This document shows positions 2,664 through 25,728 of a stretch of DNA of 32,000 nucleotides, in pieces; the first letter of the stretch is position 1, and each line of letters opens with the position of its first letter. Source of the DNA: Candidatus Saccharimonadota bacterium (GTDB lineage: Bacteria; Bacteroidota; Bacteroidia; Cytophagales; Amoebophilaceae); assembly GCF_936981045.1 (NCBI RefSeq), contig NZ_OW441264.1:150001-182000 (forward strand). The letters are read 5' to 3'. The notes below the pieces were generated by a model. It saw nothing but the letters and a program-made list of their open reading frames with translations, searched no databases and was not told where the DNA came from. Position numbers and translations under genes: made by a program.

Positions 2664-3542
2664 TTACCCATACAGTAAAGTGATTTTTAAAAATGCAACT
2701 ACTGTGGGGATGGTTAACAATAAACTATCGACTCTGTCCAAGAGTCCTCCATGGCCTGGAATCATTTCGCTAGCATTTTTTACATCTACACTTCTTTTAA
2801 GCAATGAGGCGACTAAGTCTCCATAAGTCCCTGTAAAAATAGTGATCACCGAGATCGAAAGCCACTGCCATAAGGGTAAAATATTAAAAACATAGGCCAT
2901 CGCATAGCCAGCTATTACCGAAAATAAGGCACCTCCCCAAAAGCCTTCCCATGTTTTTTGAGGCGATATCCGTTTAAAAAGTTTAGAGCGTCCTATAGCT
3001 GAACCTACTAGGTAGGCCCCTGTATCTTGGCTCCAAACAATGGCCAGTAAGCCTAATATCAGCTGGTTGGAATAGATGCCGTTAAAAAAAGCTAGATAAT
3101 GCAGCATGCTACAGGGAAGGGCAATATACAAAATACCTAAAAAGGTAGCTGCGATATCTAAAAAGGGGTTAGAGGGTTTTCGGCTATACAATGTAGCTAC
3201 ATATATTAAAATAGTTAATGGAATACAACCATAGCTTAATAGGGGTGAGTAGTTAACTTGAAGGTAGTAGGAGAAAGCTATGGTATACAGGAGTAGCCCT
3301 AGCCAAATGCCGTAGCCGCGCATGGGCGCAACATTTGCTTGTTTAAGCAACTTGTAAAACTCTAGCATGGCCAGCATGACTACATAAAAGAAAAGAAAAA
3401 AGTAGGTCCATGCGGACCAAAAAATGGAAAAAATAATAACAGGTGTAAAGAAGACAATCGAAAGAAAACGTTGTATAAAATTGTTTTGTTTTTTCAACAT
3501 AGGTGTAGGGTCTGTTTTTAATAAACGATGCATCGCCTGCAT
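2664..3542 (-). CDS. cdsA: phosphatidate cytidylyltransferase (CDP-diglyceride synthase)
   Basis: 292-aa polytopic membrane ORF carrying the CTP-transferase signature SLLKRSVDVKNASEMIPGHGGLLDRVDS. The exact start (M1, M4 or M15) is uncertain. Confidence 0.88.
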   Translation of the reverse strand: MQAMHRLLKTDPTPMLKKQNNFIQRFLSIVFFTPVIIFSIFWSAWTYFFLFFYVVMLAMLEFYKLLKQANVAPMRGYGIWLGLLLYTIAFSYYLQVNYSPLLSYGCIPLTILIYVATLYSRKPSNPFLDIAATFLGILYIALPCSMLHYLAFFNGIYSNQLILGLLAIVWSQDTGAYLVGSAIGRSKLFKRISPQKTWEGFWGGALFSVIAGYAMAYVFNILPLWQWLSISVITIFTGTYGDLVASLLKRSVDVKNASEMIPGHGGLLDRVDSLLLTIPTVVAFLKITLLYG

Positions 3543-3609
3543 CTCTTCCTATTTTCAAGCTAATAGGCTCCTACAATGATATAAAAATTTAACAGGAAAA
3601 ACATACGCA

Positions 3610-7548: not shown

Positions 7549-8655
7549 ATGCGCTATTACATTATTGCTGGCGAGCATTCCGGGGATCTGCATGGCGCTG
7601 ATTTGATTAGGCAAATCAAAGCCATAGATCACTATGCCGATTTTTGGGCTTGTGGGGGTATGGTTATGTCAAAAGCTATTGGTAAGCCTTGCAGGGTAGA
7701 TGGTTCAACAATGGCCTATATGGGGATAGATTTTTTAAAAAAGTGCTATACCCTATGGCAGTTGCTAAAATTTTGCCAAAAAGGTTTAATCGGTTACCAG
7801 CCCGATGTAGTCATTTTAATCGACTACAGTGGTTTCAATATGAGACTAGCCGCCTTTGCCAAGCGAAATGGATTTCGAGTATGTTACTATATACCGCCCA
7901 AGATCTGGGCACATAGTTCACGAAGGATTACAAAAATCCAGCGGGATGTAGACAAAGTATTATCCATCTTGCCCTTTGAAGTAGCTTATTATCAGGCGCA
8001 GGGATACCATACCATTGATTATGTAGGCAATCCGCTGGTTCAAAAGATAGCCGACCATCGCATCAATCCCTATTTTAGAGCAGATAATAGACTGGATGAC
8101 CGGCCTATTATCGCTTTATTGCCCGGTAGTAGGTTGGATGAAATTCGGCGCATATTGCCCCTGATGGTTGCCCAAGTAGACCATACCTATCAGTTTGTAG
8201 TAGCTGGATTGCGTCATATTCCAAATGGTTTGTATAAGGCAATATGTCCACCTACCATCCAAGTGGTTTACGACCAAACCTACGACCTAATGGCCGTTGC
8301 AAAGGCGGGTATCATTGCTTCTGGCACAGCTAGTTTAGAAGCTGCTTTATTTAATTTGTTGCAAGTAGTGATCTATAAGACCCATCCACTGGCTTACTGG
8401 TTTTACAAAAGCATGATCACGGTAAAACATATCTCTTTAGTCAACCTTTTGGTAAATCAAACAGTGGTTCCAGAATTGATTCAATATCAACTCACTAGTG
8501 AAAAGATCTATGCCACTTTAAAGGGTCTTTTATCAGGAAGTGGTGGCGCCAGGCAAAAAGAAGCCTATCAAACGATTCGTCGATTATTGGGTCAAAAGCA
8601 TGGTGCTACAGAAGCAGCAAAGTGTATAGTAGCCAGTATAAAGGGCCAATTCTAG
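7549..8655 (+). CDS. lpxB: lipid-A-disaccharide synthase
   Basis: N-terminus MRYYIIAGEHSGDLHGADLIRQIK and LLPGSR ... ASGTASLEAAL motifs of GT19 LpxB. The ORF opens at 7495, but the ATG at 7549 gives the canonical N-terminus. Confidence 0.9.
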   Translation: MRYYIIAGEHSGDLHGADLIRQIKAIDHYADFWACGGMVMSKAIGKPCRVDGSTMAYMGIDFLKKCYTLWQLLKFCQKGLIGYQPDVVILIDYSGFNMRLAAFAKRNGFRVCYYIPPKIWAHSSRRITKIQRDVDKVLSILPFEVAYYQAQGYHTIDYVGNPLVQKIADHRINPYFRADNRLDDRPIIALLPGSRLDEIRRILPLMVAQVDHTYQFVVAGLRHIPNGLYKAICPPTIQVVYDQTYDLMAVAKAGIIASGTASLEAALFNLLQVVIYKTHPLAYWFYKSMITVKHISLVNLLVNQTVVPELIQYQLTSEKIYATLKGLLSGSGGARQKEAYQTIRRLLGQKHGATEAAKCIVASIKGQF

Positions 8656-8702: not shown

Positions 8703-8943
8703 ACGTGAGTTCGGGATTAGATTATTTTTTCATTTGATAATCAATATCAATGAAAATTTATAAAATTTGTTTTATTAGACAGTTAAATAGGTAGTTGAAT
8801 AACAAATAATTCTGGTAATCAGTTTATTATATATATTATATTTATAAAATTAGATATAAAAACTTGTTAAATAGGTGCAAATATTAACTAAATAATTGAT
8901 ATTAAATTGTTGTAAATCAGTCAAATAAATCCCGAACTCACGT
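8703..8943 (+). mobile_element. 241-bp MITE, copy 1 (orientation A)
   Basis: Perfect 16-bp terminal inverted repeats: ACGTGAGTTCGGGATT at 8703-8718 and AATCCCGAACTCACGT at 8928-8943. The interior is extremely AT-rich and ORF-less. Flanked by a direct repeat TAATCAT (8696-8702 and 8944-8950). Three other full copies lie in the window. Confidence 0.9.
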
Positions 8944-8960
8944 TAATCATTAAAAAAATA

Positions 8961-9401
8961 ATGGAAAAAAAAGCAGGTAGGGTTATGGCGATAGACTATG
9001 GGCGCAAGCGTGTTGGTATTGCTGTAACCGATCCCTTACAAATCATTGCTACCCCTTTGACGACGATAGCCACCCCCACTTTATTTCCTTTTTTGAAGGA
9101 CTATCTACAACAAGAAAGCGTGGTAAGCTTTGTGATGGGTATGCCCAAAGGTTTAAATGGAGCACCTTCTAAAATGAGTAGGATCGTAGAGCATATCGGT
9201 GTGCAATTACAAAAGGCATTTCCAGCGCAAAGCTTCTACTACCAGGATGAGCGATTTACCTCTAAGTTGGCTATTCAGGGGCTTTACCAAGCGGGCTATT
9301 CTAAAAAGGATAGAGTGCATAAAAGCAATGTAGATAAAGTAAGTGCTGCGATTATATTACAATCCTTTTTAAGCAGATTAGATCGCAAGGTTAGTTTGTA
9401 A
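8961..9401 (+). CDS. ruvX: Holliday-junction resolvase-like nuclease YqgF/RuvX
   Basis: 146-aa ORF with the typical N-terminus (V)MAIDYGRKRVGIAVTD and the YqgF family length. An alternative ATG lies at 8985. Confidence 0.85.
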   Translation: MEKKAGRVMAIDYGRKRVGIAVTDPLQIIATPLTTIATPTLFPFLKDYLQQESVVSFVMGMPKGLNGAPSKMSRIVEHIGVQLQKAFPAQSFYYQDERFTSKLAIQGLYQAGYSKKDRVHKSNVDKVSAAIILQSFLSRLDRKVSL

Positions 9402-9616
9402 AAGGTAAATGAGTGAACCATTCCAAAGTGGATGTTTGTTCAGGTAATAGAAGACTATTGCCTTTGATACTTCTTTAGGATTTTTCTTGCATGTTTTTTT
9501 GCAGTTCTGCTAGTTCTTGCTTCATTAGATCTGCTAGCTTAACCGGTTCTGTCGCGTCTATATTTTCGTTAGCAACGTCTTTTCTTTTAAGTGAAGCTTT
9601 GGATATATATTGGTTA

Positions 9617-9722
9617 TTATTCGGCCATTAGCATAACAAAATTCTCAAAAGTAGAAAGATGATTTTTAGCTCCGATTACTTGTCCTTTTTGAATCATAGG
9701 AATGTTTTCTATCTCTACAATG
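9617..9722 (-). pseudogene. IS6-family transposase, 3' exon (C-terminal 35 codons)
   Basis: Translates as (S)IVEIENIPMIQKGQVIGAKNHLSTFENFVMLMAE*, which matches the conserved IS6 C-terminal I-x-G-I-E...KGQ block. Confidence 0.75.
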
Positions 9723-11674
9723 GTCTAGAGTAAAGAAATGGTTGGACCACTTAAAATTAAGCATATCTATTGCTTCTGATTGCTCGCAATACAGTAGCTG
9801 ACTAACTTGATTCTTCATTGTTTACCCATTCCCTTCTCATCCCAAGGTACGTTCAGTTTTCCCGAATACGGCGGTCCGACAGTCTTCTTCATAAACTTTG
9901 CACAACTCTCTCAGGATACTTAATCATTCCACTACCAATGTACAACATCCCCATTGTATAGAGTTTGCTATTGGGATAGCTTTGCCACCCACACCCACGG
10001 CCTTTTCTTCTATGGGTTAAGTATCTGCGAAATCGGTTATTAATAAAGTCCTGCAATCTAACAAAAGCTTCACTCGCATTCGTATGTTTAAAATAGTTAA
10101 CCCATCCTAACACTACTGGTTTTATTTGCTCGATGAATGTTTGAGGTTTGATTAGTGCTCTTCTACAAGTCAGGTATTTTAGTCTGTTACGGATGCTTTG
10201 TTGGGATTGTTTCGTTGGAAATACATAAATGCTATTTCTGCCACTTGTTGGACTCTTTCTTTTTACAAAGTAAAAACCTATGAAGTTAAAGCCTTCTTTC
10301 AGTTTCGTTATTCGTGTCTTTTGGTGGTTAATAATGAGCGATAACCTCTTTACTAATTCTGTGAATTTCTCCAGCGCTAAGCTAGCACTCTTACGACATA
10401 CCAAAATTGCATCATCACAATACCTATGCAAGGTTGCGCTTAGCTTTTCTGGATACCCCCTTGAGTGCCACACTTGGTCTATAACATTTAGGTAGATTAC
10501 TATACAACGGTGATATTGGTGATCCTTGCGGTACTCCAACTTTCTTGCATGTAATTTTACCTTGTTTTACTATTGACGTTGTTAGGGTTTGTTTAATTAG
10601 CTTCAACATACTGCCATCTGCTATCCTTTTACTAATAAGTTTTAATAACTTTTCGTGTGAGATGCTAGTAAAGTATGATTGAAAATCAATCTCAACTACG
10701 CCCCATGCCTGCTGGTATAGATCTTCTCGGATCACTAAACTCGCTTGTTTGGCTCCTCGTTTCGGTCTATAGCCGTATGAACATTCATGAAAATCAGCTT
10801 CGAAGATCGGTTCAATGACTATTTTCATTGCTGTGAGCACTATGAGATCTTCTACGGTCATTACCTCTAGTGGCCTTGTTCCACCTTTAGCTTTGGGTAT
10901 TTCTACCAACCTGCTTGAGGTAAATTTGTATAGCTTTGCGCGTAGTTGCTGCTGCAATTTATTGATAATCTTTGCCTCACCTTGATCTATTATATCACTT
11001 ATGCTTTTACCATCAATCCCTGCTGAACCTTGATTTGCTTTGACTTGACGCCAAGCTTCCCAAAGTACATCTTTTAGATAAATTTTATCATATATACTAT
11101 AAAATCTGACTTCCTTACATTGCTTGGATTTGAGATATAGAGTTCTTTGGAGTTGCTGAACTTTTAATGTTCCGTTCATAGCTTTAGGGCAATCAGACAT
11201 TCTCAACTCTTTTAAACTCGTTAACTGAAGTAGGGTCCCTTTCCTCTTGAGTGGTTTCCCAATCAATACGAACGGTATTATAGACCCCGCGGACTTCTGA
11301 TATCACCCTTATTGATTTCGCTTTACTTATACAATAAAGTTTCCAGTGGCCTACTGGATTCATATCAGATCTCCCGGACTACGATGTGAAACATTCATAG
11401 CGTGCAACCCCTAACACCCCGGCACTTGTATGATGGTCATGGTCTATTTTTTCCATCCTACTATCAGCCTTCCTGTAGCCACTAGATAGTCGGCAAATGC
11501 GCTTAAACGGCTTAACGAGGCTAATTTAGGTTCACTTTTGTTGCAGCCCGCTATTTTGCAGATGCATTTAAAGGTAACTTAAACCTGTGAATCACCCCAC
11601 AAATCCAACCTCCTGCTAGACTCCCGAAATAGACAAATTAGAGTCAGGGGACTTACACCCCATTTGTTGCACAC
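9723..11674 (-). mobile_element. bacterial group II intron (1952 nt) with frameshifted RT/maturase ORF
   Basis: On the minus strand it begins GUGUGCAAC (GUGYG consensus) at 11674 and ends ...CUCUAGAC (AY) at 9723. It encodes a reverse transcriptase/maturase. A domain V-like hairpin lies at 9842-9874. Removal at these boundaries joins the IS6 transposase frame without a stop. Confidence 0.8.
9889..11200 (-). pseudogene. group II intron-encoded reverse transcriptase/maturase, frameshifted
   Basis: Two overlapping ORFs (10424-11266 and 9889-10539). RT motifs include GSAGIDG, PKAKGGTRPL, GVPQGSPISPLYSN and RYCDDAILVC (YxDD), and the maturase X motif is LGWVNYFKHTNA. No endonuclease domain. A 2-bp deletion near 10496, relative to the second copy (..ggtagatattac.. 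at 19397), breaks the frame. Confidence 0.85.
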
Positions 11675-12089
11675 CTGTGCCGGCGTGCAATGGCTGCAGA
11701 CTTAAAACACTTAAAACTAAGCAAAAGCTGCAGACTTGTCTCTATGCTCAGATAGAAAAAAGTCAACTGTATCACCATAACGATCTACTGTTCTATATAA
11801 ATAGATCCACTTCCTGTTTAGTTTAACATAGGTCTCATCCATTCTCCAACTACCACCAACTGGTCGTTTTCTTTTGCTTACTGCTTCATCTATTAAGAGG
11901 AACAAACTTAATAACCCATCTTTGTAGCGTAGAATGATCAACTCTTGTGCCTCTCATACGCATCATCTCTTCCAAATCTCTATAGCTCAAGGAAAAACGA
12001 TACTTCATCTAGACAAATAACAGGATGACTTCTGCTGAAGAACAATAGCCCTTAAAATAAGGTAATAATTTGGGCGAAATACTAAACAT
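11675..12089 (-). pseudogene. IS6-family transposase, 5' exon; in-frame TAG, frameshift and ~200-bp internal deletion
   Basis: From ATG 12089: MFSISPKLLPYFKGYCSSAEVILLFV*MKCRFSLSYRDLEEMMRMRGARVDHSTLQRWVIKFVPL, then a frame change to IDEAVSKRKRPVGGSWRMDETYVKLN.KWIYLYR.VDRYGDTVDFFLS, as in IS26-like Tnp. About 200 bp present in copy 2 (about 19832-20031) are missing after 11723. Confidence 0.8.
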
Positions 12090-12241
12090 AATAACTACTT
12101 TTTTAACTGCAGATACTAAAATAATGATTTTTTAGAATAAACGCGACAAAACCAATATACATCCAAAACTTCACTTAAAAGAAAAGCCTTTACTAACGAA
12201 AATATAGACGCGACAGAACCTATGGCGTATTACTGGATTAA

Positions 12242-12389
12242 AAGGCCGCTATTTTGCATACTTTTTAAGCGACAATCATGGCGCATGGTACGCTTTACCA
12301 TTGCCAGCAGCCGTTAAGGCCGCTATTTTGCATACTTTTTAAGCGACAATCATGGCGCATGGTACGCTTTACCATTGCCAGCAGCCGTT
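12242..12389. repeat. perfect tandem duplication, 2 x 74 bp
   Basis: 12242-12315 is identical to 12316-12389. The unit holds the last ~12 codons plus the stop of the ABC ATPase gene and 34 bp downstream of it. Confidence 0.95.
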
Positions 12390-13045
12390 TTAGCTGACTG
12401 CAATATACCATCTTCTAGTAATAAAATTCTATCTGCAATGGTTGCCAACGATTGGTTATGGGTTACCAAGACGAAAGTTTGCTTTAACCGCTTTGAGAGA
12501 TCTAAGAATAGCGCATGCAGCATTTCTGCATTTTTGGCATCAAGATTGCCACTTGGTTCATCCGCGAAAATAATCGATGGGCTATTGATCAATGCCCTAG
12601 CTATAGCTGCACGTTGCCGTTCTCCTCCAGAAACCGCCTCTGGCAGATGATTTTTTCGATGGCTAATGCCCAGTAAAGCTAACAGGTCAGCAGCCCTTTG
12701 TGCTACTTCTTTTTTTGATAAAAAACCAATATAACCAGGAATACAAATGTTTTCAAAAAGTGTAAATTCGGGTAACAGGTTATGAAATTGAAAGACAAAC
12801 CCTATTTTTTTATTTCTAAATGTGGCCAATCCACTACCTTTTAGCTCTATAAGATCTATCCCATCCATCGTTAGGGAACCACTATCTGGCCTATCTAATG
12901 TAGATAAAAGATGTAACAAAGTGGTTTTTCCAGCCCCGGAGGGCCCCATAATGGCTACCATTTCTCCAGCATGGATGGATAAATGGATCTGTTTCAGGAT
13001 CTTATATCCATGATAAGATTTACAAACTTCTTTGGCTACAAGCAT
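12350..13045 (-). CDS. ABC transporter ATP-binding protein (LolD/FtsE-like)
   Basis: 231-aa ORF with Walker A GPSGAGKTT, the ABC signature LSGGERQR and Walker B IIFADEPSGNLD. Confidence 0.88.
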   Translation of the reverse strand: MLVAKEVCKSYHGYKILKQIHLSIHAGEMVAIMGPSGAGKTTLLHLLSTLDRPDSGSLTMDGIDLIELKGSGLATFRNKKIGFVFQFHNLLPEFTLFENICIPGYIGFLSKKEVAQRAADLLALLGISHRKNHLPEAVSGGERQRAAIARALINSPSIIFADEPSGNLDAKNAEMLHALFLDLSKRLKQTFVLVTHNQSLATIADRILLLEDGILQSAKTAAGNGKAYHAP

Positions 13046-16309: not shown

Positions 16310-16533
16310 ATCTGTTGTTTGTGATCAATGTAAAAATTAAAATTTTTCTGATTAGTATATACCCAGGATTTGGTATACGATTACCATAGTGTAACTAAGT
16401 ATAAGGAGCATCAAATTTAACAAAAAAGAACCGAGATAAAAAGATACCTTTAAATTGTTAAGGCTATCATAACGTTGCAAAGGAACCAGTTTAAAATGAA
16501 AGCGTTACCAAATTTTCAATGCACTACTTTAAA

Positions 16534-16774
16534 ACGTGAGTTCTGGATTTATTTGACTGATTTACAACAATTTAATATCAATTATTTAGTTAATATTTGC
16601 ACCTATTTAACAAGTTTTTATATCTAATTTTATAAATATAATATATATAATAAACTGATTACCAGAATTATTTGTTATTCAACTGCCTATTTAACTGTCT
16701 AATAAAACAAATTTTATAAATTTTCATTGATATTGATTATCAAGTGAAAAAATAATCTAATCCCGAACTCACGT
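16534..16774 (-). mobile_element. 241-bp MITE, copy 2 (orientation B)
   Basis: By manual alignment it matches the reverse complement of copy 1 except at 3 positions. One TIR carries the G-to-T variant ACGTGAGTTCTGGATT, shared with copy 4. Flanks are TTAAA / TTACA (4 of 5 identical). Confidence 0.9.
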
Positions 16775-16977
16775 TTACAGTCAGAAATGGATGACCATTT
16801 AGGTTATAAATAAGTATGCACGTAGTGATTCAGAGAATGTACGTAATGGATTATCCAGTAAGCAAGTTATTACTGATAATGGCGTTATATCGGTTGAAGT
16901 ACCCAGAGATAGAGCATCGACTTTTGAACCTATTTTATTGCCTAATCGTCAAACAAGAATTTCTGGTTTGGATGATA
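16775..16977 (+). pseudogene. fragment of a second, divergent IS256-family transposase gene
   Basis: Translates, with one frameshift, as LQSEMDDHLGYK / YARSDSENVRNGLSSKQVITDNGVISVEVPRDRASTFEPILLPNRQTRISGLDD. This parallels GEMAHHL...NRRNGKSSKTLRTSSGSFDLLIPRDRTGSFDPQIVKKRQT of the intact copy at 17229. Bounded on both sides by MITE termini. Confidence 0.75.
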
Positions 16978-16995
16978 ACGTGAGTTCGGGATTAG
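16978..16995 (+). repeat. solo MITE terminus (18 bp)
   Basis: ACGTGAGTTCGGGATTAG equals the first 18 bp of the orientation-A MITE. The sequence then diverges completely. Confidence 0.7.
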
Positions 16996-17154
16996 CTTGT
17001 TAAAAAATAGCTTTAAAAAGCTTCTTTGTGTTTTAAATTTGGAGATAAAAAAATACTAACCAGATTATCCAAAGGAGCCAGTTATGAATGTAGAAATAAT
17101 TAGTTGAAATATATTATGCTGTTGATGAATTTCTCATAAAGTTTATGCCGTATA

Positions 17155-18501
17155 GGAAGTGTTCTATAAACTGTGTCAAGGTGATAAAAAGTTATAAATT
17201 AATTAAATAAACATTAAAGGTTTTAGACATGGAAGAAAATAAGAACAATTCCTATGTTGGTTTAGTAGATTACAAATTTCTGGAGGAAAATATTTTGTGC
17301 TCTATCCGTTTAGGTAAGCCTTTAACAGGAAAAGGTGGTGCTTTAACGCCTCTGATAAAAAAGCTTCTAGAGGCAAGTCTAGAAGGTGAAATGGCACACC
17401 ATTTATCTAGTGATTCAACAGAAAATAATAGAAGAAATGGAAAAAGCTCTAAAACTTTACGTACAAGTTCTGGTTCCTTTGATCTGCTAATTCCTAGGGA
17501 TAGGACAGGTAGTTTCGATCCACAAATAGTTAAAAAGCGTCAAACAAGCCTACATCCTGAGCTGGAAAGCAAGATCTTAAGCATGTTTTCTAGTGGTATG
17601 AGCTATAAATCTATAGCCGTTCATGTTGAAGAGATCTATGATCATAAAGTATCAGCTGCTGAAATATCATCTATTACAGATAGCTTGTTACCGATAATAA
17701 ATGAATGGCGTAACCGCCCTCTTCAATCAGTTTATCCGATAGTTTTCATGGATAGGATGTTTTTTAAGGTAAAAGAAGATGGCAGATGTGTAAGCAAATG
17801 CATGTATACCTTATTAGGCATAGATCAAGAGGGTAAAAAAGAAGTATTGGGATTTTATTTGTCTGAAAGTGAGGGGGCTAACTTCTGGTTGGGTGTACTT
17901 AACGAGCTTAAGGAAAGAGGTGTAGAAGATATCCTTATTGCCTGTGTTGATGGCCTAAAAAGCTTTCCTTCAGCCATAAATAGCGTTTTCCCTAATGCAC
18001 AAGTGCAGGTCTGTGTAGTACATCAGATACGAAACTCACTCAAGTACGTAGCTAGCAAAGACGTAAAACGTTTTTTAACTGATTTAAAGCAAATATATCA
18101 AGCTTCAAGTAAGGAAGTTGCTGAGCATTATCTATTGGAATTAGAAGAAAAATGGGGGGGGAAGTATCCAATGGTTACCAAATCTCGGCAAAATAATTGG
18201 GAACATTTGTCTGGTTATTTTAAGTATTCAGATTCTGTCAGAAGGCTAATTTATACCACCAATCCTATAGAAAGCTTGCATAGGCAGATTAGGAAGTTTA
18301 CCAAGACAAAAGGAGCGTTTACCAGTATAAATGCTTTGTATAAATTAGTATATTGTGCCATAAAGAAGATCGAGGATAAATGGACTATTCCGCTGCGAAA
18401 CTGGGCGTTGACCATATCTCAGATAGACATCTTTTTTCCCGGTAGATTAAAAGAGACGTTGAGATGAACAGGAGATGTGACACAGTTTATAGAACACTTC
18501 C
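17155..18501 (+). mobile_element. IS256-family insertion sequence, apparently intact (1347 bp)
   Basis: Perfect 24-bp terminal inverted repeats: GGAAGTGTTCTATAAACTGTGTCA at 17155-17178 and its complement at 18478-18501. A single uninterrupted transposase ORF. No target-site duplication is visible (flanks ..GCCGTATA / GAAGATAA..). Confidence 0.88.
17229..18467 (+). CDS. IS256-family (mutator-type) transposase
   Basis: 412-aa ORF with family hallmarks: RDRTGSFDPQIVKKRQ, IVFMDRMFFKV, LIACVDGLKSFPSAI and TTNPIESLHRQIRKFTK. Confidence 0.9.
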   Translation: MEENKNNSYVGLVDYKFLEENILCSIRLGKPLTGKGGALTPLIKKLLEASLEGEMAHHLSSDSTENNRRNGKSSKTLRTSSGSFDLLIPRDRTGSFDPQIVKKRQTSLHPELESKILSMFSSGMSYKSIAVHVEEIYDHKVSAAEISSITDSLLPIINEWRNRPLQSVYPIVFMDRMFFKVKEDGRCVSKCMYTLLGIDQEGKKEVLGFYLSESEGANFWLGVLNELKERGVEDILIACVDGLKSFPSAINSVFPNAQVQVCVVHQIRNSLKYVASKDVKRFLTDLKQIYQASSKEVAEHYLLELEEKWGGKYPMVTKSRQNNWEHLSGYFKYSDSVRRLIYTTNPIESLHRQIRKFTKTKGAFTSINALYKLVYCAIKKIEDKWTIPLRNWALTISQIDIFFPGRLKETLR

Positions 18502-18503
18502 GA

Positions 18504-18628
18504 AGATAAGGGCTACAGCGGCTCACCTAACAAAACCTTATTAAAGGATAAAGCCTTAAAATCAGCTATTCAGAAGAAAGCCACTAGAAATAATCCCTTA
18601 TCACCTACTGCCAAGAGGTTTAATAAAT
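18504..18628 (+). pseudogene. fragment of IS5-family transposase gene
   Basis: Near-identical to 27742-27858 of the IS5-family element (..DKGYSGSPNKTLLKDKALKSAIQKKATRNNPLSPTAKRFNK). It abuts the IS256 right end on one side and the truncated intron on the other. Confidence 0.85.
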
Positions 18629-18629
18629 T

Positions 18630-19782
18630 CTAGAGTAAAGAAATCGTTGGACACTTAAAATTAGGCATATCTATTGCTTCTGATTGCTCGCAATACAGTA
18701 GCTGACTAACTTGATTCTTCATTGTTTACCCATTCTCTTCTCATCCCACCGTACGTTCAGTTTTCCCGAATATGACGGTCCGACAGTCTTCTTCATAAAC
18801 CTTGCACAACTCTCTCAGGATACTTAATCATTCCACTACCAATGTACAACATCCCCATTGTATAGAGTTTGCTATTGGGATAGCTTTTCCACCCACACCC
18901 ACGGCCTTTTCTTCTATGGGTTAAGTATCTGCGAAATCGGTTATTAATAAAGTCCTGCAATCTAACAAAAGCTTCACTCGCATTCGTATGTTTAAAATAG
19001 TTAACCCATCCTAACACTACTGGTTTTATTTGCTCGATGAATGTTTGAGGTTTGATTGGTGCTCTTCTACAAGTCAGGTATTTTAGTCTGTTACGGATGC
19101 TTTGTTGGGATTGTTTCGTTGGAAATACATAAATGCTATTTCTGCCACTTGTTGGACTCTTTACTTTTTACAAAGTAAAAACCTATGAAGTTAAAGCCTT
19201 CTTTCAGTTTCGTTATTCGTGTCTTTTGGTGGTTAATAATGAGCGATAACCTCTTTACTAATTCTGTGAATTTCTCCAGCGCTAAGCTAGCACTCTTACG
19301 ACATACCAAAATTGCATCATCACAATACCTATGCAAGGTTGCGCTTAGCTTTTCTGGATACCCCCTTGAGTGCCACACTTGGTCTATAACATTTAGGTAG
19401 ATATTACTATACAACGGTGATATTGGTGATCCTTGCGGTACTCCAACTTTCTTGCATGTAATTTTACCTTGTTTTACTATTGACGTTGTTAGGGTTTGTT
19501 TAATTAGCTTCAACATACTGCCATCTGCTATCCTTTTACTAATAAGTTTTAATAACTTTTCGTGTGGGATGCTAATAAAGTATGATTGAAAATCAATCTC
19601 AACTACGCCCCATGCCTGCTGGTATAGATCTTCTCGGATCACTAAACTCGCTTGTTTGGCTCCTCGTTTCGGTCTATAGCCGTATGAACATTCATGAAAA
19701 TCAGCCTCGAAGATCGGTTCAATCTAGACTCCCGAAATAGACAAATTAGAGTCAGGGGACTTACACCCCATTTGTTGCACAC
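18630..19782 (-). mobile_element. group II intron remnant (copy 2): 799-bp internal deletion, extra frameshift, 3' end clipped
   Basis: Collinear with 9725-11674 except that the equivalent of 10817-11615 is missing (junction at 19723/19724). An extra A near 19162 splits the RT ORF (19136-19642 and 18793-19017). The last 2 nt of the intron are missing. Confidence 0.85.
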
Positions 19783-20461
19783 CTGTGCCGGCGTGCAATG
19801 GCTGCAGACTTAAAACACTTAAAACTAAGCATAGGTTTTAGCCGTTTTTTGATAAACCTATGATCTTGTTCAACTCTATTATTCAAGTATTTGTTTTGAA
19901 ATATTTGAATGGTATGATCTTGATCAAGTTCTGTATTGATCGTATCAAGGGCAGCTTTATTACTACCGCTTTTGTCAATTACTACTTTCTTAGGAATATT
20001 ATTTTCTGTAATCGCCTTACGAAAAAAAGAAAAAGCTACAGACTTGTCTCTATGCTCAGATAGAAAAAAGTCAACTGTATCACCATAACGATCTACTGCT
20101 CTATATAAATAGATCCACTTCCCGTTTAGTTTAACATAGGTTTCATCCATTCTCCAACTACCACCAACTGGTCGTTTTCTTTTGCTTACTGCTTCATCTA
20201 TTAAGAGGAACAAACTTAATAACCCATCTTTGTAGCGTAGAATGATCAACTCTTGCGCCTCTCATACGCATCATCTCTTCCAAATCTCTATAGCTCAAGG
20301 AAAAACGACACTTCATCTAGACAAATAACAGGATGACTTCTGCTGAAGAACAATAGCCTTTAAAATAAGGTAATAATTTGGGCGAAATATTAAACATAAT
20401 AACTACTTTTTTAACTGAAGATACTAAAATAATGATTTTTTAGAATAAACGCGACAAAACC
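19783..20461 (-). mobile_element. IS6-family element remnant (copy 2): transposase 5' exon only, pseudogene
   Basis: Same intron insertion point, in-frame TAG and frameshift as copy 1, but it retains the ~200 bp deleted in copy 1, including ...NNRVEQDHRFIKKRLKPMLSFKCFKSAAIA. It ends at the inner IR-like GGTTTTGTCGCG (20461). The 3' exon and the other IS end are absent. Confidence 0.8.
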
Positions 20462-20712: not shown

Positions 20713-22485
20713 ATGAATGCAACAGAAGGAGTTTTCAACTGGGATCAATATGACAAGGCTGGTAAATTAGGCAGTGCATATACAGATCAAAAAAGAGCAG
20801 ATATTGCCGCAATATATGAAACTACCTTAAGCGCTATTAGCCAGTATGAAGTAATAAAAGGGTCTGTGATAAGCATCACCAATAAAGATGTTATTGTAGG
20901 TGTTGGGTACAAGTCCGATGGTTTAATTTCTGTCTCTGAGTTTAGGGATCTGCCTGAATTAAAACCAGGTGACGAGGTTGAAGTATATATAGAAGAAACA
21001 GAAAATGCCAAAGGTCAATTGGTTCTTTCTCGTAAAAAAGCAAAATTAGTAAGAGCTTGGGAGAAAATTCAGCATGCATTGGAACATGGGGAGGTATTAG
21101 AAGGACTTGTCAAACGTAGAACTAAAGGAGGATTGATTGTAGAGGTCTGTGATATTGAAACCTTTTTACCTGGTTCACAAATTGACATTAGGCCTGTTTT
21201 AGACTTTGATGTTTTTGTAGGTAAAACCATTGATGTAGTGGTTATTAAAATCAATCATGCCAATGATAATGTGGTTGTTTCCCATAAAGCACTAACTGAG
21301 AAAAAACTAGAAGGACAGAAACTCGAAATCATGAGTAAGCTTGAAAAAGGTCAAATTCTAGAGGGCTATGTAAAAAACATCACTAAATTTGGTGCTTTTA
21401 TTGATTTAGGGGGGGTAGATGGCTTACTCCATAAGTTAGATATGGCCTGGAGTAGGGTCAACCATCCAGAGGAGCTGTTTACGCTTGGCCAAAAGCTAAG
21501 TGTAGTGGTCATTGGTTTTAATGAAGATAAAAAGCGTATTTCTTTGGGCTTGAAGCAGCTTCAAGGCCATCCATGGGATGCCCTTCCAGAGACGGTGCAA
21601 GTAGGATCCACCATTAAGGGCACCATAACCAATATTGCTGATTATGGCCTTTTTATAGAATTGATGCCAGGTGTTGAAGGTTTTGTATATGTTTTAGATA
21701 TTTCATGGTCACAATATTTGCGTGATACCAATGAATATTACAAAATAGGTGATACCATTGATACCTATATATTGTCATTGGATCGGAAGAATCATAAAAT
21801 ATCTTTGGGCATCAAGCAATTAACTGGAGATCCGTGGGAACATGATACATTCTTATCTACTTATGCAGTAGGGACCACCCATGAAGGTATTGCGCGCAAT
21901 CTGACCCACTTTGGTGCTTTTATAGAGCTAGAACCAGGTATTGAAGGTCTGTTGCACGTTTCTCGTCTTTCTGGTACTAAACGGGTGGCACACCCTGCTG
22001 ACGTGTTGAAATTGGGTGAAAAATTAGAAACGATCGTATTAGGTATTAATCGGGAAAACAGGCGCCTCTCACTTGGATTAAAGCAGAGAAATTCATGGGA
22101 TGCCTGTGAAAAGATTTTCCAAATAGGTACGCTACATAAAGGTACTGTACTGAAAAAGACTCCAGGTCGTGGGGCAATGGTTGAATTGGCGCATGGTATA
22201 GAAGGTCATGTGCCGCAGCAGCATTTAATTAAATCAGATGGTAGGGAAGCAGAAGTTGGAGAGGAGTTAGATTTTGAAGTAATCAAATTTTCTAAAGGAG
22301 ATAAAAAAATAATTTTGTCATATCAAATTCTTTTTAATCCAGAAATGGAAACTAAAGTTGAGGGCAAAACAAAAGGGGATACAAAAGGAAAAATAGAGGA
22401 AGCACCATCTGCTAAAGGGTTTGAAGCTTTTGCTGACTTGAAAGAAAAATTAGAACAGAACACAAAAGGAGAAGAGAAAGGGTAG
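20713..22485 (+). CDS. rpsA: 30S ribosomal protein S1
   Basis: 590-aa ORF made of six S1 (OB-fold) repeats, with recurring G.V..I...GAFI.L..G..G..H motifs and an acidic/Lys-rich tail. Confidence 0.93.
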   Translation: MNATEGVFNWDQYDKAGKLGSAYTDQKRADIAAIYETTLSAISQYEVIKGSVISITNKDVIVGVGYKSDGLISVSEFRDLPELKPGDEVEVYIEETENAKGQLVLSRKKAKLVRAWEKIQHALEHGEVLEGLVKRRTKGGLIVEVCDIETFLPGSQIDIRPVLDFDVFVGKTIDVVVIKINHANDNVVVSHKALTEKKLEGQKLEIMSKLEKGQILEGYVKNITKFGAFIDLGGVDGLLHKLDMAWSRVNHPEELFTLGQKLSVVVIGFNEDKKRISLGLKQLQGHPWDALPETVQVGSTIKGTITNIADYGLFIELMPGVEGFVYVLDISWSQYLRDTNEYYKIGDTIDTYILSLDRKNHKISLGIKQLTGDPWEHDTFLSTYAVGTTHEGIARNLTHFGAFIELEPGIEGLLHVSRLSGTKRVAHPADVLKLGEKLETIVLGINRENRRLSLGLKQRNSWDACEKIFQIGTLHKGTVLKKTPGRGAMVELAHGIEGHVPQQHLIKSDGREAEVGEELDFEVIKFSKGDKKIILSYQILFNPEMETKVEGKTKGDTKGKIEEAPSAKGFEAFADLKEKLEQNTKGEEKG

Positions 22486-22725: not shown

Positions 22726-23088
22726 CTATTAAGTGCTATGTTATTCGTGCAGGGTTAATGGAAGGATTTGCCCCACGCTTTGATCAAGCAATAAGTAAGA
22801 TATAAAAATATTTTTTTGCTTTGGGTGTGAGCAGCGATAGTGAAGGAGCTATCTAATACCAGTTTTATTTTTGTAATTCTATTGGGCTTTGTTTATAATT
22901 AAATTATAGTTTATTCGCTTTGGAGGCTTCCCAAAATTAGAGCATTGCTGCTTCTATTGTTTGCCATGCAAATGTATAAAGTTGTAACTTTGAAGCGAAG
23001 TAAAGAACTTTACTTGAAGTGAGGCATTAGCCAAAAGCCGTACATTACGCAATTGGTTTATGTAGGAAACTTTTGATTGTATAGAGTC

Positions 23089-23814
23089 ATGAAAAGAAAT
23101 GAAATACTCAATCTAAATGATTGGAACTTGCATCAACTTACAAGAGCGGTGTCTGAAACGCCAAAAGAAATAAAACATACTTGGCCAAAGATACAGGAGG
23201 CGTATTCATGGGCAGAAAGGATTGCAAGACAAGCAAATTCAAAAATGTTCAAGCATTCCCTAAGGGCATCTATCGAGGTAGCTATGATTGCTGTTATGGA
23301 GCTGTCTTTGGGTCTTCCTGGTGTTATTACTGCGATCTTAGCGCCACCTTTCTTACAAGGCTTAGTCCAGAAAGCAACCATTCAAAAGCGTTTTGGCTTA
23401 AAAATAGTCTCTATATTAGTGGAGCTGAATAGATTAAAGCGTTACAAATTGTACCGTGGTGCCATGCTTAACGGTCAGAATGCTTCTGATCTAGCCGTTG
23501 TCCGTATTGTAGCCATCTTACTGCAAATTTGTGATATCGTTCGTGTAAGCTATAGGGGGGTGCCATTGGGAAGTTTAGATTCAGAATTGATCTACTATTC
23601 CAGTAGTAAACTTTTCCTTGATCTAAAATGTTTTTATATTCCATTTTCGCATAGAATGCGGTTATATAACATTCAAGCCAAATTAGCAGATTTTTGGTTC
23701 AAACATACAGATACCCTTGGTTATTATTCCATTACTGCGGAGCTGGGCATGACCAAGCTTCAAAGACAGCAAACTATAACTAATATATATATGACTGGTT
23801 CACAATATGTCTAA
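23089..23814 (+). pseudogene. relA/spoT-family remnant: N-terminal HD-domain region only, catalytic motifs lost
   Basis: The 241-aa ORF aligns by eye to the first ~240 aa of Bacteroidetes RelA/SpoT. Pairs (ORF vs family): HSLRASIEVA vs HPLAVA; FGLKIVSILVELNRL vs FG..VA.LVDGVTKL; FYIPFSHRMRLYNIQAKLADFWFKHTD vs IYAPLAHRLGLY.IK.ELEDL.FK. The HD dyad region reads ILAPPFLQG and the ADRLHN motif reads QICDIV. The synthetase, TGS and ACT parts are absent. Confidence 0.6.
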
Positions 23815-23823
23815 TCCCGAACT
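23810..23823 (-). repeat. solo MITE-like terminus (14 bp) supplying the stop codon of the relA/spoT remnant
   Basis: TCTAATCCCGAACT equals the inner-to-outer sequence of the MITE end (..AATCTAATCCCGAACTCACGT). The TAA at 23812-23814 lies inside it. Confidence 0.5.
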
Positions 23824-23986
23824 GAGGTGAGTACTAAATGGTAGTACCTATTTAGCGGTATGGCCGTTCCACGAAAAAAATAAAAAAACCACCTCCTTAA
23901 AAAAGTTGCAATCAGAAAGTGCAGCTTGCAGTTGAAAAGAAAAATAATTGAAATAGGGGCTGAAAGGTGGCTTCTGCTTTTCTCGA

Positions 23987-24073: not shown

Positions 24074-25606
24074 TTATTTAGCCTTGGTTAAGCTTGGCCT
24101 GAAAATTGGACAGTTTGCCTTGTTGATTAGGCTATGGTATTTTTTTGAGAGCATGCAAACTGCTGTCATCCAAACGATGCAAATAAACAAAAATATTACC
24201 ATTAAAAATGGCGCCAGTTGATTGGGCTGTGCAGAAGTGAAAATAGTATAAAAGATAACTTGTAAAATAGCCCCCGCAGATTTCCCTATTTTTCCACCTA
24301 ATATATCAACCGCTGCTTTTCCTTTTGTGCCCATTTCACAGTCTAAGGGAATGTAAACCATCTCTTTGGTTACATCAAAAAAACAATATTTAGTTCCCTT
24401 AGCTAATACGTTTTGTAGACCACCAATGGTTACAATAACAGCTAAAGTGGATATACCCATTATAGTCTCTGATAAAAAGTTGTAATGCGTGGCAATGATA
24501 AGCAGGAAAAAACAGCCTCCCACTATAAGTGTTGTAACAGGTGTAATCAGTGCTGCACCTAACCAACTTAGCTTTCGAATCACTACATTACCAAAACAAG
24601 AACAAGACAATGTACAAACGCCTGTCCAGAATAAGACCTTACCTTGGTAAGTAATAAAACTTGTAGGATCTTTCTTATAAAAAAGACTGGTTTCATAAAA
24701 CCAGAGGCCTTCTATTAAGTGTACAACCATAGAGTAAGAGATCATTAATACACAAATTAATGCAAGGTATTTAGATGTGGAAATCATTTTAAAACTTTTA
24801 TATAGTCCTAATTGTAATGTGGTAGCTGGCCTGGCTGGTACCCTTTGACTGTAGATAATATACTTTTCGATATACTTGTGTAAAAGTAGAATAAAGAGAC
24901 ATAAGGAGGTAATAACGATCATCAGCGTGGCTATTTTTGATGCTGCTTCCATTTTATAGCTATCTGTAAAGCGTAATAAAAAATGATCGGTATGCGAAAA
25001 GTATACTATGATAGTGCCGGAAATAAGTAGATTGGCTTGTCCAATCAAGTTGAAAAAGAAGTAAAACCGACCCGCTTCTTCTGTTGTAGTTATTTTATTG
25101 GCCAACTGCCAATATAACAGGGTAAAAACAATCATGGGCCACAGTTCACCTAGCATGTAGAAGAGTATTAATGTCCACTTACCCCACATGATAAAGAACC
25201 ATTTAAAATGAGGATAAAGCTTAATGTAAGCATCTACCCTACAAGGATCGGGATGTAATAGCGTTTGATAAGGAAACAAAAAAAAGCCGAATAGAATAAA
25301 AAAAAAGAGAAAAAAAAGTATAATGCCTCTAAAAATATTTTCTGTTGTGACCTGATTACATAAGATGGTATAGATCACTACAAATAAAATCCCTGCGGGC
25401 ATTTCAACAAATAGTTTAATAAAGCTCAATACTTCTGCTCCTATTAAGGTAACGACAAGACCATCTTTTATGCCACGGATTAAATTTTGATTCAACAAAA
25501 TAAGAAACATTAAGATGGCCATAGAAAAAAATTTTTGCAGCGCACTGCCCTTAATAGGCCAGTGCATAAGGTGCCATTTTTTTAGTAGGACGCTTATTTG
25601 TTTCAT
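24074..25606 (-). CDS. NTT/Tlc-type nucleotide (ATP/ADP) translocase
   Basis: 510 aa from ATG 25606 (the ORF opens at 25735). About 12 TM segments. Family hallmarks: WPIKGSALQKFFSMAILMFLILLNQNLIRGIKDGLVVT, LHPDP, MLGELWPMIVFTLLYWQLANKITTTEEAGRFYFFFNLIG and CFFDVTKEMVYIPLD. Confidence 0.88.
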   Translation of the reverse strand: MKQISVLLKKWHLMHWPIKGSALQKFFSMAILMFLILLNQNLIRGIKDGLVVTLIGAEVLSFIKLFVEMPAGILFVVIYTILCNQVTTENIFRGIILFFLFFFILFGFFLFPYQTLLHPDPCRVDAYIKLYPHFKWFFIMWGKWTLILFYMLGELWPMIVFTLLYWQLANKITTTEEAGRFYFFFNLIGQANLLISGTIIVYFSHTDHFLLRFTDSYKMEAASKIATLMIVITSLCLFILLLHKYIEKYIIYSQRVPARPATTLQLGLYKSFKMISTSKYLALICVLMISYSMVVHLIEGLWFYETSLFYKKDPTSFITYQGKVLFWTGVCTLSCSCFGNVVIRKLSWLGAALITPVTTLIVGGCFFLLIIATHYNFLSETIMGISTLAVIVTIGGLQNVLAKGTKYCFFDVTKEMVYIPLDCEMGTKGKAAVDILGGKIGKSAGAILQVIFYTIFTSAQPNQLAPFLMVIFLFICIVWMTAVCMLSKKYHSLINKANCPIFRPSLTKAK

Positions 25607-25728
25607 ATTGATTTTAAGTTTATTAAACGGGTATCCGTTCAGCCTTCTGGTCATACTACCCAAAAACAAGCAAAAAATAGCGTACAAATTCCTTTTATCA
25701 AAAAAAATAGGATACATCATTCTTAACC

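Follow-up and report, generated by a model that had tools for sequence, protein, structure and literature searches.

Insertion sequences of the IS982 family are ~1 kb long, have inverted-repeat ends with 5'-AC, generate direct repeats of variable length and encode one DDE transposase (PMC7335449). ISCca4 is recorded in ISfinder as an element of 999 bp with a 291-aa transposase at positions 104-979, inverted repeats of 18/19 and a direct repeat of 6 bp (PMC7335449). According to the report on the Cardinium endosymbiont found in the spider Oedothorax gibbosus (Halter, Hendrickx, Horn and Manzano-Marin, 2022, Microbiol Spectr, PMC9769881), this genome carries 68 copies of ISCca4 (7 intact copies and 61 pseudogenes), and the intact ones are thought to maintain MITECca01, an element of ~240 bp that lacks a transposase and has inverted repeats identical to those of ISCca4, but shorter. 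The same report gives 169 copies of MITECca01, which account for 3.5% of the chromosome and mostly are intergenic or disrupt other mobile elements. MITECca01 was found by blastn in no other Cardinium strain, and its origin was proposed to lie in the lineage of the O. gibbosus symbiont (PMC9769881). This report is also cited in a 2024 review of prokaryotic MITEs.

The DNA analysed here (the window) is a single stretch of 32,000 nucleotides. Four of its proteins are exact matches to proteins of the Cardinium endosymbiont of O. gibbosus, and its gene content, including a TLC ATP/ADP translocase, IS6, IS256 and IS5 transposases, and the reverse transcriptase and RNA domains of group II introns, agrees with an Amoebophilaceae symbiont that carries much mobile DNA. 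The mix of elements published for the genome (IS6, IS256, IS5 and group II introns; PMC9769881) is also seen in the window. Four full copies of a 241-bp repeat are present:

8703-8943, + strand: MITE copy 1, between an lpxB-like ORF (ends at 8655) and a ruvX-like ORF (starts at 8961, with the end of the copy 17 bp upstream)
16534-16774, - strand: MITE copy 2, in a degraded pseudogene of an IS256-family transposase (N-terminal part)
27864-28104, - strand: MITE copy 3, within an IS5-family (ISCca3-type) transposase gene
30043-30283, + strand: MITE copy 4, intergenic, murC-like/nusA

We are highly confident that these repeats are MITECca01, a gene-less element with the ends of ISCca4 that is probably moved in trans by the ISCca4 transposase, and this identity is by genome, length, abundance, ends and behaviour, not by a base-by-base match. 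The preliminary description of this DNA had presented the repeat as a new family, a claim that falls with the publication in 2022 of the ~240-bp MITECca01 from the same genome (PMC9769881). The published copy number and the length found here give 169 x 241 / 1,137,202 bp = 3.58% of the chromosome, compared with the published 3.5%, and the window holds 4 copies per 32 kb where 4.8 would be expected from the published density.

What the preliminary description had reported about the copies themselves was reproduced. All four lie at the coordinates and in the orientations listed above, each is exactly 241 bp long, and the 16-bp terminal inverted repeats, beginning ACGTGAGTTCGGGATT, were found at every copy. 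The 16-mer ACGTGAGTTCGGGATT has 10 matches in the window at ≤3 mismatches, compared with 0.08 in shuffled sequence; 8 of them are copy ends and the other 2 are solo ends, which had also been described (16978-16993, +, 0 mismatches; 23813-23828, -, 2 mismatches). Alignment confirmed 3 differences between copy 1 and each other copy, and pairwise differences among copies 2, 3 and 4 amount to 4-6 positions. The consensus of the four copies is copy 1, and the copies are 97.5-98.8% identical (divergence 1.2-2.5%), consistent with the recent spread proposed earlier on the basis of their near-identity. Copies 2 and 4 indeed have in common a G-to-T change in the same terminal repeat, giving ACGTGAGTTCTGGATT, which had been taken as a subfamily marker and would mark a small sub-lineage.

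When the copies were aligned with 30-nt flanks, the terminal repeats proved to be the exact limits of similarity, with unrelated flanks on either side, so that the 241-bp unit is discrete and not a piece of a larger duplication. Being part of such a duplication had been named beforehand as what would speak against a MITE. The repeat had been read as a non-autonomous MITE, and this reading is upheld by the 16-bp terminal repeats, the short AT-rich target duplications and the discrete copies at unrelated sites.

The interior is AT-rich and free of ORFs as described before, with a G+C content of 20.7% (37.9% for the window), stops in all frames and a longest stop-free stretch of 30 codons; the 11-bp direct repeat GTTAAATAGGT at 8782 and 8866 and the near-palindrome TTGATAATCAATATCAA at 8734 are also present. 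The predicted RNA fold of the 241-bp unit is far more stable than those of shuffled sequences (z = -5.8), which would favour a structured RNA or a REP-like regulatory repeat. The stability stems mainly from pairing of the terminal repeats, however, and apart from that stem the centroid structure keeps just a few short hairpins. An Rfam scan of the window matched a group II intron domain and four tRNAs but no family on the MITE. Target duplications and insertions within transposase genes likewise argue against an RNA or REP-like repeat. The other form of this alternative, a unit that is part of a larger duplicated segment, is contradicted by the boundaries of similarity at the terminal repeats in 4/4 copies with unrelated flanks, and we give next to no credence to either form. 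When the surroundings of copy 1 were scanned for promoters and terminators, promoter-like sites were fewer than in shuffled sequences and nothing rose above chance. As no convincing similarity was found between the interior of the MITE and that of ISCca4, a simple internal deletion of ISCca4 can be put forward only as a hypothetical origin.

The solo ends connect the repeat with its parent. They belong to two remnants of ISCca4, which are listed here with the element that cuts off the first of them:

16978-17154, + strand: ISCca4 (IS982 family) 5' fragment, first 177 bp, recognized by similarity to ISCca4 of plasmid pcBtQ1
17155-18501, + strand: intact IS256-family element with terminal repeats GGAAGTGTTCTATAAACTGTGTCA and a transposase at 17229-18467, given as context and outside the MITE family
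23774-23828, + strand: ISCca4 3' remnant, approximately the last 55 bp, of which 23774-23823 align with ISCca4 positions 945-994 at 84% identity

On pcBtQ1, a plasmid of the Bemisia tabaci Cardinium, the stretch 16978-17152 has a match of 80.7% identity and 100% coverage that is annotated as "IS982-like element ISCca4 family transposase". The 5' fragment is 80.9% identical to positions 1-178 of this ISCca4, the aligned window positions being 16978-17158. The left terminal repeat ACGTGAGTTCGGGATTAG of the fragment is the same as the left end of the MITE over 18 nt, and it is followed by a leader and then by the first transposase codons, which are frameshifted; transposase residues 6-23, encoded at 17100-17153, are 100% identical to those of ISCca4. 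The fragment is cut off at 17155 by the intact IS256-family element. The 3' remnant has a decayed right terminal repeat AATCCCGAACTGAGGT with 2 mismatches and no terminal repeat at its upstream boundary, and the ORF at 23077-23814 (+) runs into it. From these ISCca4 alignments, the autonomous partner has left two pieces in the window, a 5' stump and a 3' remnant, and these are the solo ends. It had been stated earlier that none of the three IS families in the window has related ends and that the partner is absent; an intact partner is indeed absent, as a tblastn search of the window with two IS982 transposases recovered only the 18-residue start at 17100-17153 and no intact gene, whereas the solo ends turned out to be truncated ISCca4. 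The ORF at 23077-23814 (+) encodes 245 aa, has a weak match to HD_4 that stays under the Pfam cut-off, and ends within the 3' remnant; the IS has probably truncated or fused a gene here.

The region 16400-20400 consists of nested and recombined mobile DNA, in the order IS256-like pseudogene with MITE copy 2, ISCca4 5' stump, intact IS256 element, IS5 fragment, group II intron and IS6 fragment. The intact IS256 element (17155-18501) has no matching target duplications. A second set of intron and IS6 is located at about 9545-12220 and, close to it, a perfect 74-bp tandem duplication of two identical units (12242-12389) overlaps the 3' end of a lolD-like ORF (12350-13045, -). Elsewhere in the window, a gene at 25729-26529 (-) encodes a 266-aa protein that matches PF00153, the mitochondrial carrier family of eukaryote type (37.7 bits; cut-off 22.3), and it adjoins, and overlaps by a few bases, the TLC ATP/ADP translocase gene (24074-25735, -).

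The ISCca4 copy on pcBtQ1 is 999 bp long, starts with ACGTCAG, ends with CTCACGT and is flanked by the 5-bp duplication TATTA; its transposase gene at positions 104-979 agrees with the ISCca4 listing in PMC7335449. The 18-mer ACGTGAGTTCGGGATTAG was also searched in a species-representative genome collection, where it was found on at least 48 contigs; the matches listed are mostly from Bacteroidota, and many are at contig ends. A search for transposase genes bounded by these ends had been recommended in the preliminary description, and such a gene was found outside the window, in Emticicia agri. This element of 1000 bp has a TAACTA duplication and perfect 16-bp terminal repeats that are identical to those of the MITE, and its ORF reached 196 bits (cut-off 130) with the NCBIfam model NF033520 for the IS982 family transposase. 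Both the pcBtQ1 copy of ISCca4 and the E. agri element show the properties of the IS982 family, with duplications of 5-7 bp. At the loci of Cardinium cBcalN2 and Amoebophilaceae recovered in the 18-mer scan, no IS982 gene was found beside the match, and there were only solo ends.

It is very improbable, in our judgement, that the 241-bp repeats are a new family of MITEs with no relation to the insertion sequences of this genome and with an autonomous partner that is absent or unknown. The interior is unlike ISCca4 and the window has no intact transposase gene with these ends, as such a family would have it, but a ~240-bp ISCca4-ended MITE has already been published from the same genome (PMC9769881), the window itself has two truncated copies of ISCca4 whose ends are the same, and an IS982 transposase is flanked by identical terminal repeats elsewhere. 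The motif AGMTTGTW given after the left repeat in PMC9769881 fits AGCTTGTT in the ISCca4 fragment and is matched at 7/8 positions by AGATTATT in the MITE copies.

The flanking direct repeats were found as previously described, TAGTA (5/5) at copy 3 and TAATCAT (7/7) at copy 1 being perfect, and TATTA/TACTA (4/5) at copy 4 and TTAAA/TTACA (4/5) at copy 2 being imperfect. Read in the orientation of copy 1, the flanks of copy 3 are TACTA and those of copy 2 are TGTAA/TTTAA. Among the ACGTGAGTTCGGGATTAG matches listed, 16 elements from other genomes have paired ends with the same terminal repeat; 11 of these have perfect duplications of 6-7 bp, and among the remaining 5 there are 4 with a single mismatch in the duplication. 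The duplications of these 16 elements nearly all start, and mostly also end, with TA. Taken together, the flanks of the window copies and of the 16 outside elements indicate an AT-rich duplication of variable length (5-7 bp), usually with TA at its borders, which is in line with the variability of duplication length expected for the IS982 family (PMC7335449). A target duplication of about 5 bp had been suggested for this repeat; it is short and AT-rich as suggested, while a fixed length of ~5 bp does not hold, the range being 5-7 bp.

Two of the four copies are located within other transposase genes (IS5 and IS256) and inactivate them, while copies 1 and 4 are intergenic. The gene hit by copy 3 is as follows:

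27006-28133, + strand: transposase gene of the IS5 family into which MITE copy 3 is inserted, given as context

In-silico removal of copy 3 with 5 bp restored a 341-aa IS5 ORF reading ..KRFNKLVAQTRYKVERVFGSIKSW.., and removal of copy 2 with 5 bp kept the frame of the IS256-like pseudogene (..TTLKSEMDDHLGYK). A second ISCca3 (IS5) fragment at 18504-18660 was compared with 27734-27863. Between the group II intron boundary in it, at 18629/18630, and the site used by copy 3 (TAGTA, 27859-27863), the offset is 0-4 nt, and this agreement may be a coincidence or may reflect a common preferred site. The fragment (18504-18629) was rejected as an empty site for copy 3, since the group II intron that interrupts it makes it end 0-4 nt short of the insertion point.

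The DDE transposase of the intact ISCca4 copies elsewhere in the genome would recognize and bind the 16-18 bp ends of the MITE and move it in trans into AT-rich sites, usually bounded by TA, where staggered cuts at the target would leave the 5-7 bp duplications. Since the window contains no intact ISCca4 transposase gene, it is by inference that we propose mobilization in trans. The low divergence of the copies and their star-like pattern point, as far as sequence comparison can tell, to a recent burst from one master copy.

Another possibility is that the copies are immobile relics whose near-identity has been kept by gene conversion and not by recent transposition. Two of the four target duplications are imperfect (4/5), which counts against mobilized MITECca01 copies and in favour of such relics; the genome is also full of nested, recombined mobile DNA, and 61 of its 68 ISCca4 copies are pseudogenes according to PMC9769881. 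On the other hand, the pattern is star-like, with copy 1 as the consensus and 3 private or shared changes in each of the others, the perfect duplications of copies 1 and 3 and the frame-restoring excision point to young insertions, and the same article counts 7 intact ISCca4 copies. We consider gene conversion among dead copies unlikely, and it appears to be a weaker alternative than a recent burst of transposition.

The reported restriction of MITECca01 to the O. gibbosus symbiont can be compared with the following results. Sensitive blastn against plasmids gave a match on p_B of the Dermatophagoides farinae Cardinium (CP101108.1, 20836-21054; 72.4% identity over 89% of the MITE, E = 1e-22), and a local search extended this match to MITE positions 4-228. 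The p_B sequence (20826-21054) is non-coding and is located after a tra operon and before an Rpn-family nuclease gene. The local search also found a second, partial copy on p_B at CP101108.1 98523-98681; HD-domain genes adjoin this partial MITE-like copy. On pcBtQ1 of the B. tabaci strain, blastn found a non-coding match at 40592-40688 (72% over 43% of the MITE). Relatives of the ~210-bp MITE core, 72-75% identical and with decayed ends, are therewith found on plasmids of two Cardinium strains. An intact terminal repeat was sought on p_B, and none is present. In a global alignment of the plasmid relative with the MITE, 20/32 terminal-repeat positions and 156/209 core positions are identical, a difference that is not significant (P = 0.09). 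Because the identity is similar at the ends and in the core, the plasmid sequence looks like an old, evenly decayed copy, and we lean to the view that the plasmid relatives are decayed copies rather than a core that would have gained ends later. As the flanks of the p_B and pcBtQ1 relatives share no synteny and have similarity only near the Rpn genes, the plasmid relatives provide no date for the MITE family.

On contig_67 of Cardinium sp. cBcalN2 (3481-3551), a solo end was found that is identical to the first 28 nt of the MITE, that is, the terminal repeat plus the 12 nt AGATTATTTTTT, and then diverges; it lies ~500 bp from an Rpn-family gene. A scan of metagenomes with a MITE-specific 30-mer gave no match. 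Three metagenome contigs matched a degenerate 25-mer of the core and were rejected; having no similarity beyond the pattern, they are chance matches. We tentatively propose, at slightly below even confidence, that the MITECca01 family did not arise solely in the lineage of the O. gibbosus symbiont: it may be of greater age, or it may be carried by plasmids and have spread horizontally, and the recent burst would then be confined to this strain. Alternatively, its core may have been recruited from plasmid DNA and not produced by internal deletion of ISCca4. If true, this would be a modest correction to the published origin of MITECca01 and would introduce no new kind of element.

In other bacteria, ACGTGAGTTCGGGATTAG also bounds short elements that are too small for a transposase gene, with lengths of 140, 150, 169-172, 202, 228, 283-286 and 392 bp among the matches listed (loci L001, L003, L005-L007, L010, L012, L017, L018, L021, L027, L029, L032, L033 and L047). 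Their duplications, among the matches listed, are mostly perfect, 6-7 bp long and bounded by TA. The hosts, represented by MAGs or genomes, are Phaeodactylibacter, Chitinophagales, Pyrinomonadaceae, Anaerolineaceae, Emticicia and Balneolales. A type of ~172 bp in Phaeodactylibacter has a common left-end sequence on at least 15 contigs and paired ends on 5, again among the matches listed. Judging from their ends and sizes, these elements have the appearance of additional MITE families of IS982 origin, found across several phyla, and they hint at a wider distribution of such MITEs than has been reported.

For this symbiont, the element, the IS family of its parent and the disruption of other mobile elements by it have been known since 2022, and little is added to these points here. 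The variable TA-bounded duplications, the identity of the solo ends, the plasmid relatives and the IS982-type ends across phyla are additions that could refine the origin of the MITE.

Compared with ISCca4 itself, the 241-bp unit has identical terminal 16-18 nt (in the fragment within the window), AC ends and short AT-rich target duplications in common, but it is only 241 bp long, has no transposase gene and has an interior without detectable relation to that of ISCca4. Other IS-derived bacterial MITEs, MITEAba12 for example (reviewed in PMC10969869), follow the same general design: they are <300 bp long, share terminal repeats with the IS they derive from, make target duplications and are mobilized in trans, while their parent families, ends and hosts are other ones. 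Within the Cardinium genome, PMC9769881 also describes MITECca02, which is likewise short and ISCca4-ended, yet has a much longer ISCca4 stretch after the left repeat and few copies, whereas the 241-bp unit has the repeat and a few bases only. A 250-bp eroded ISCca4 from the same article is another short ISCca4-ended sequence of this genome; unlike the 241-bp unit, it keeps part of the 3' end of the transposase gene, and the remnant at 23774-23828 could belong to this class. While that article contains neither an analysis of target duplications nor relatives in other Cardinium, diverged plasmid relatives were found here. From MITECca01 as it is described there nothing is shown to differ, and the published motif AGMTTGTW is one base off AGATTATT; the two agree in genome, in length class, in the lack of a transposase, in ISCca4-like ends, in high copy number and in the disruption of mobile elements.
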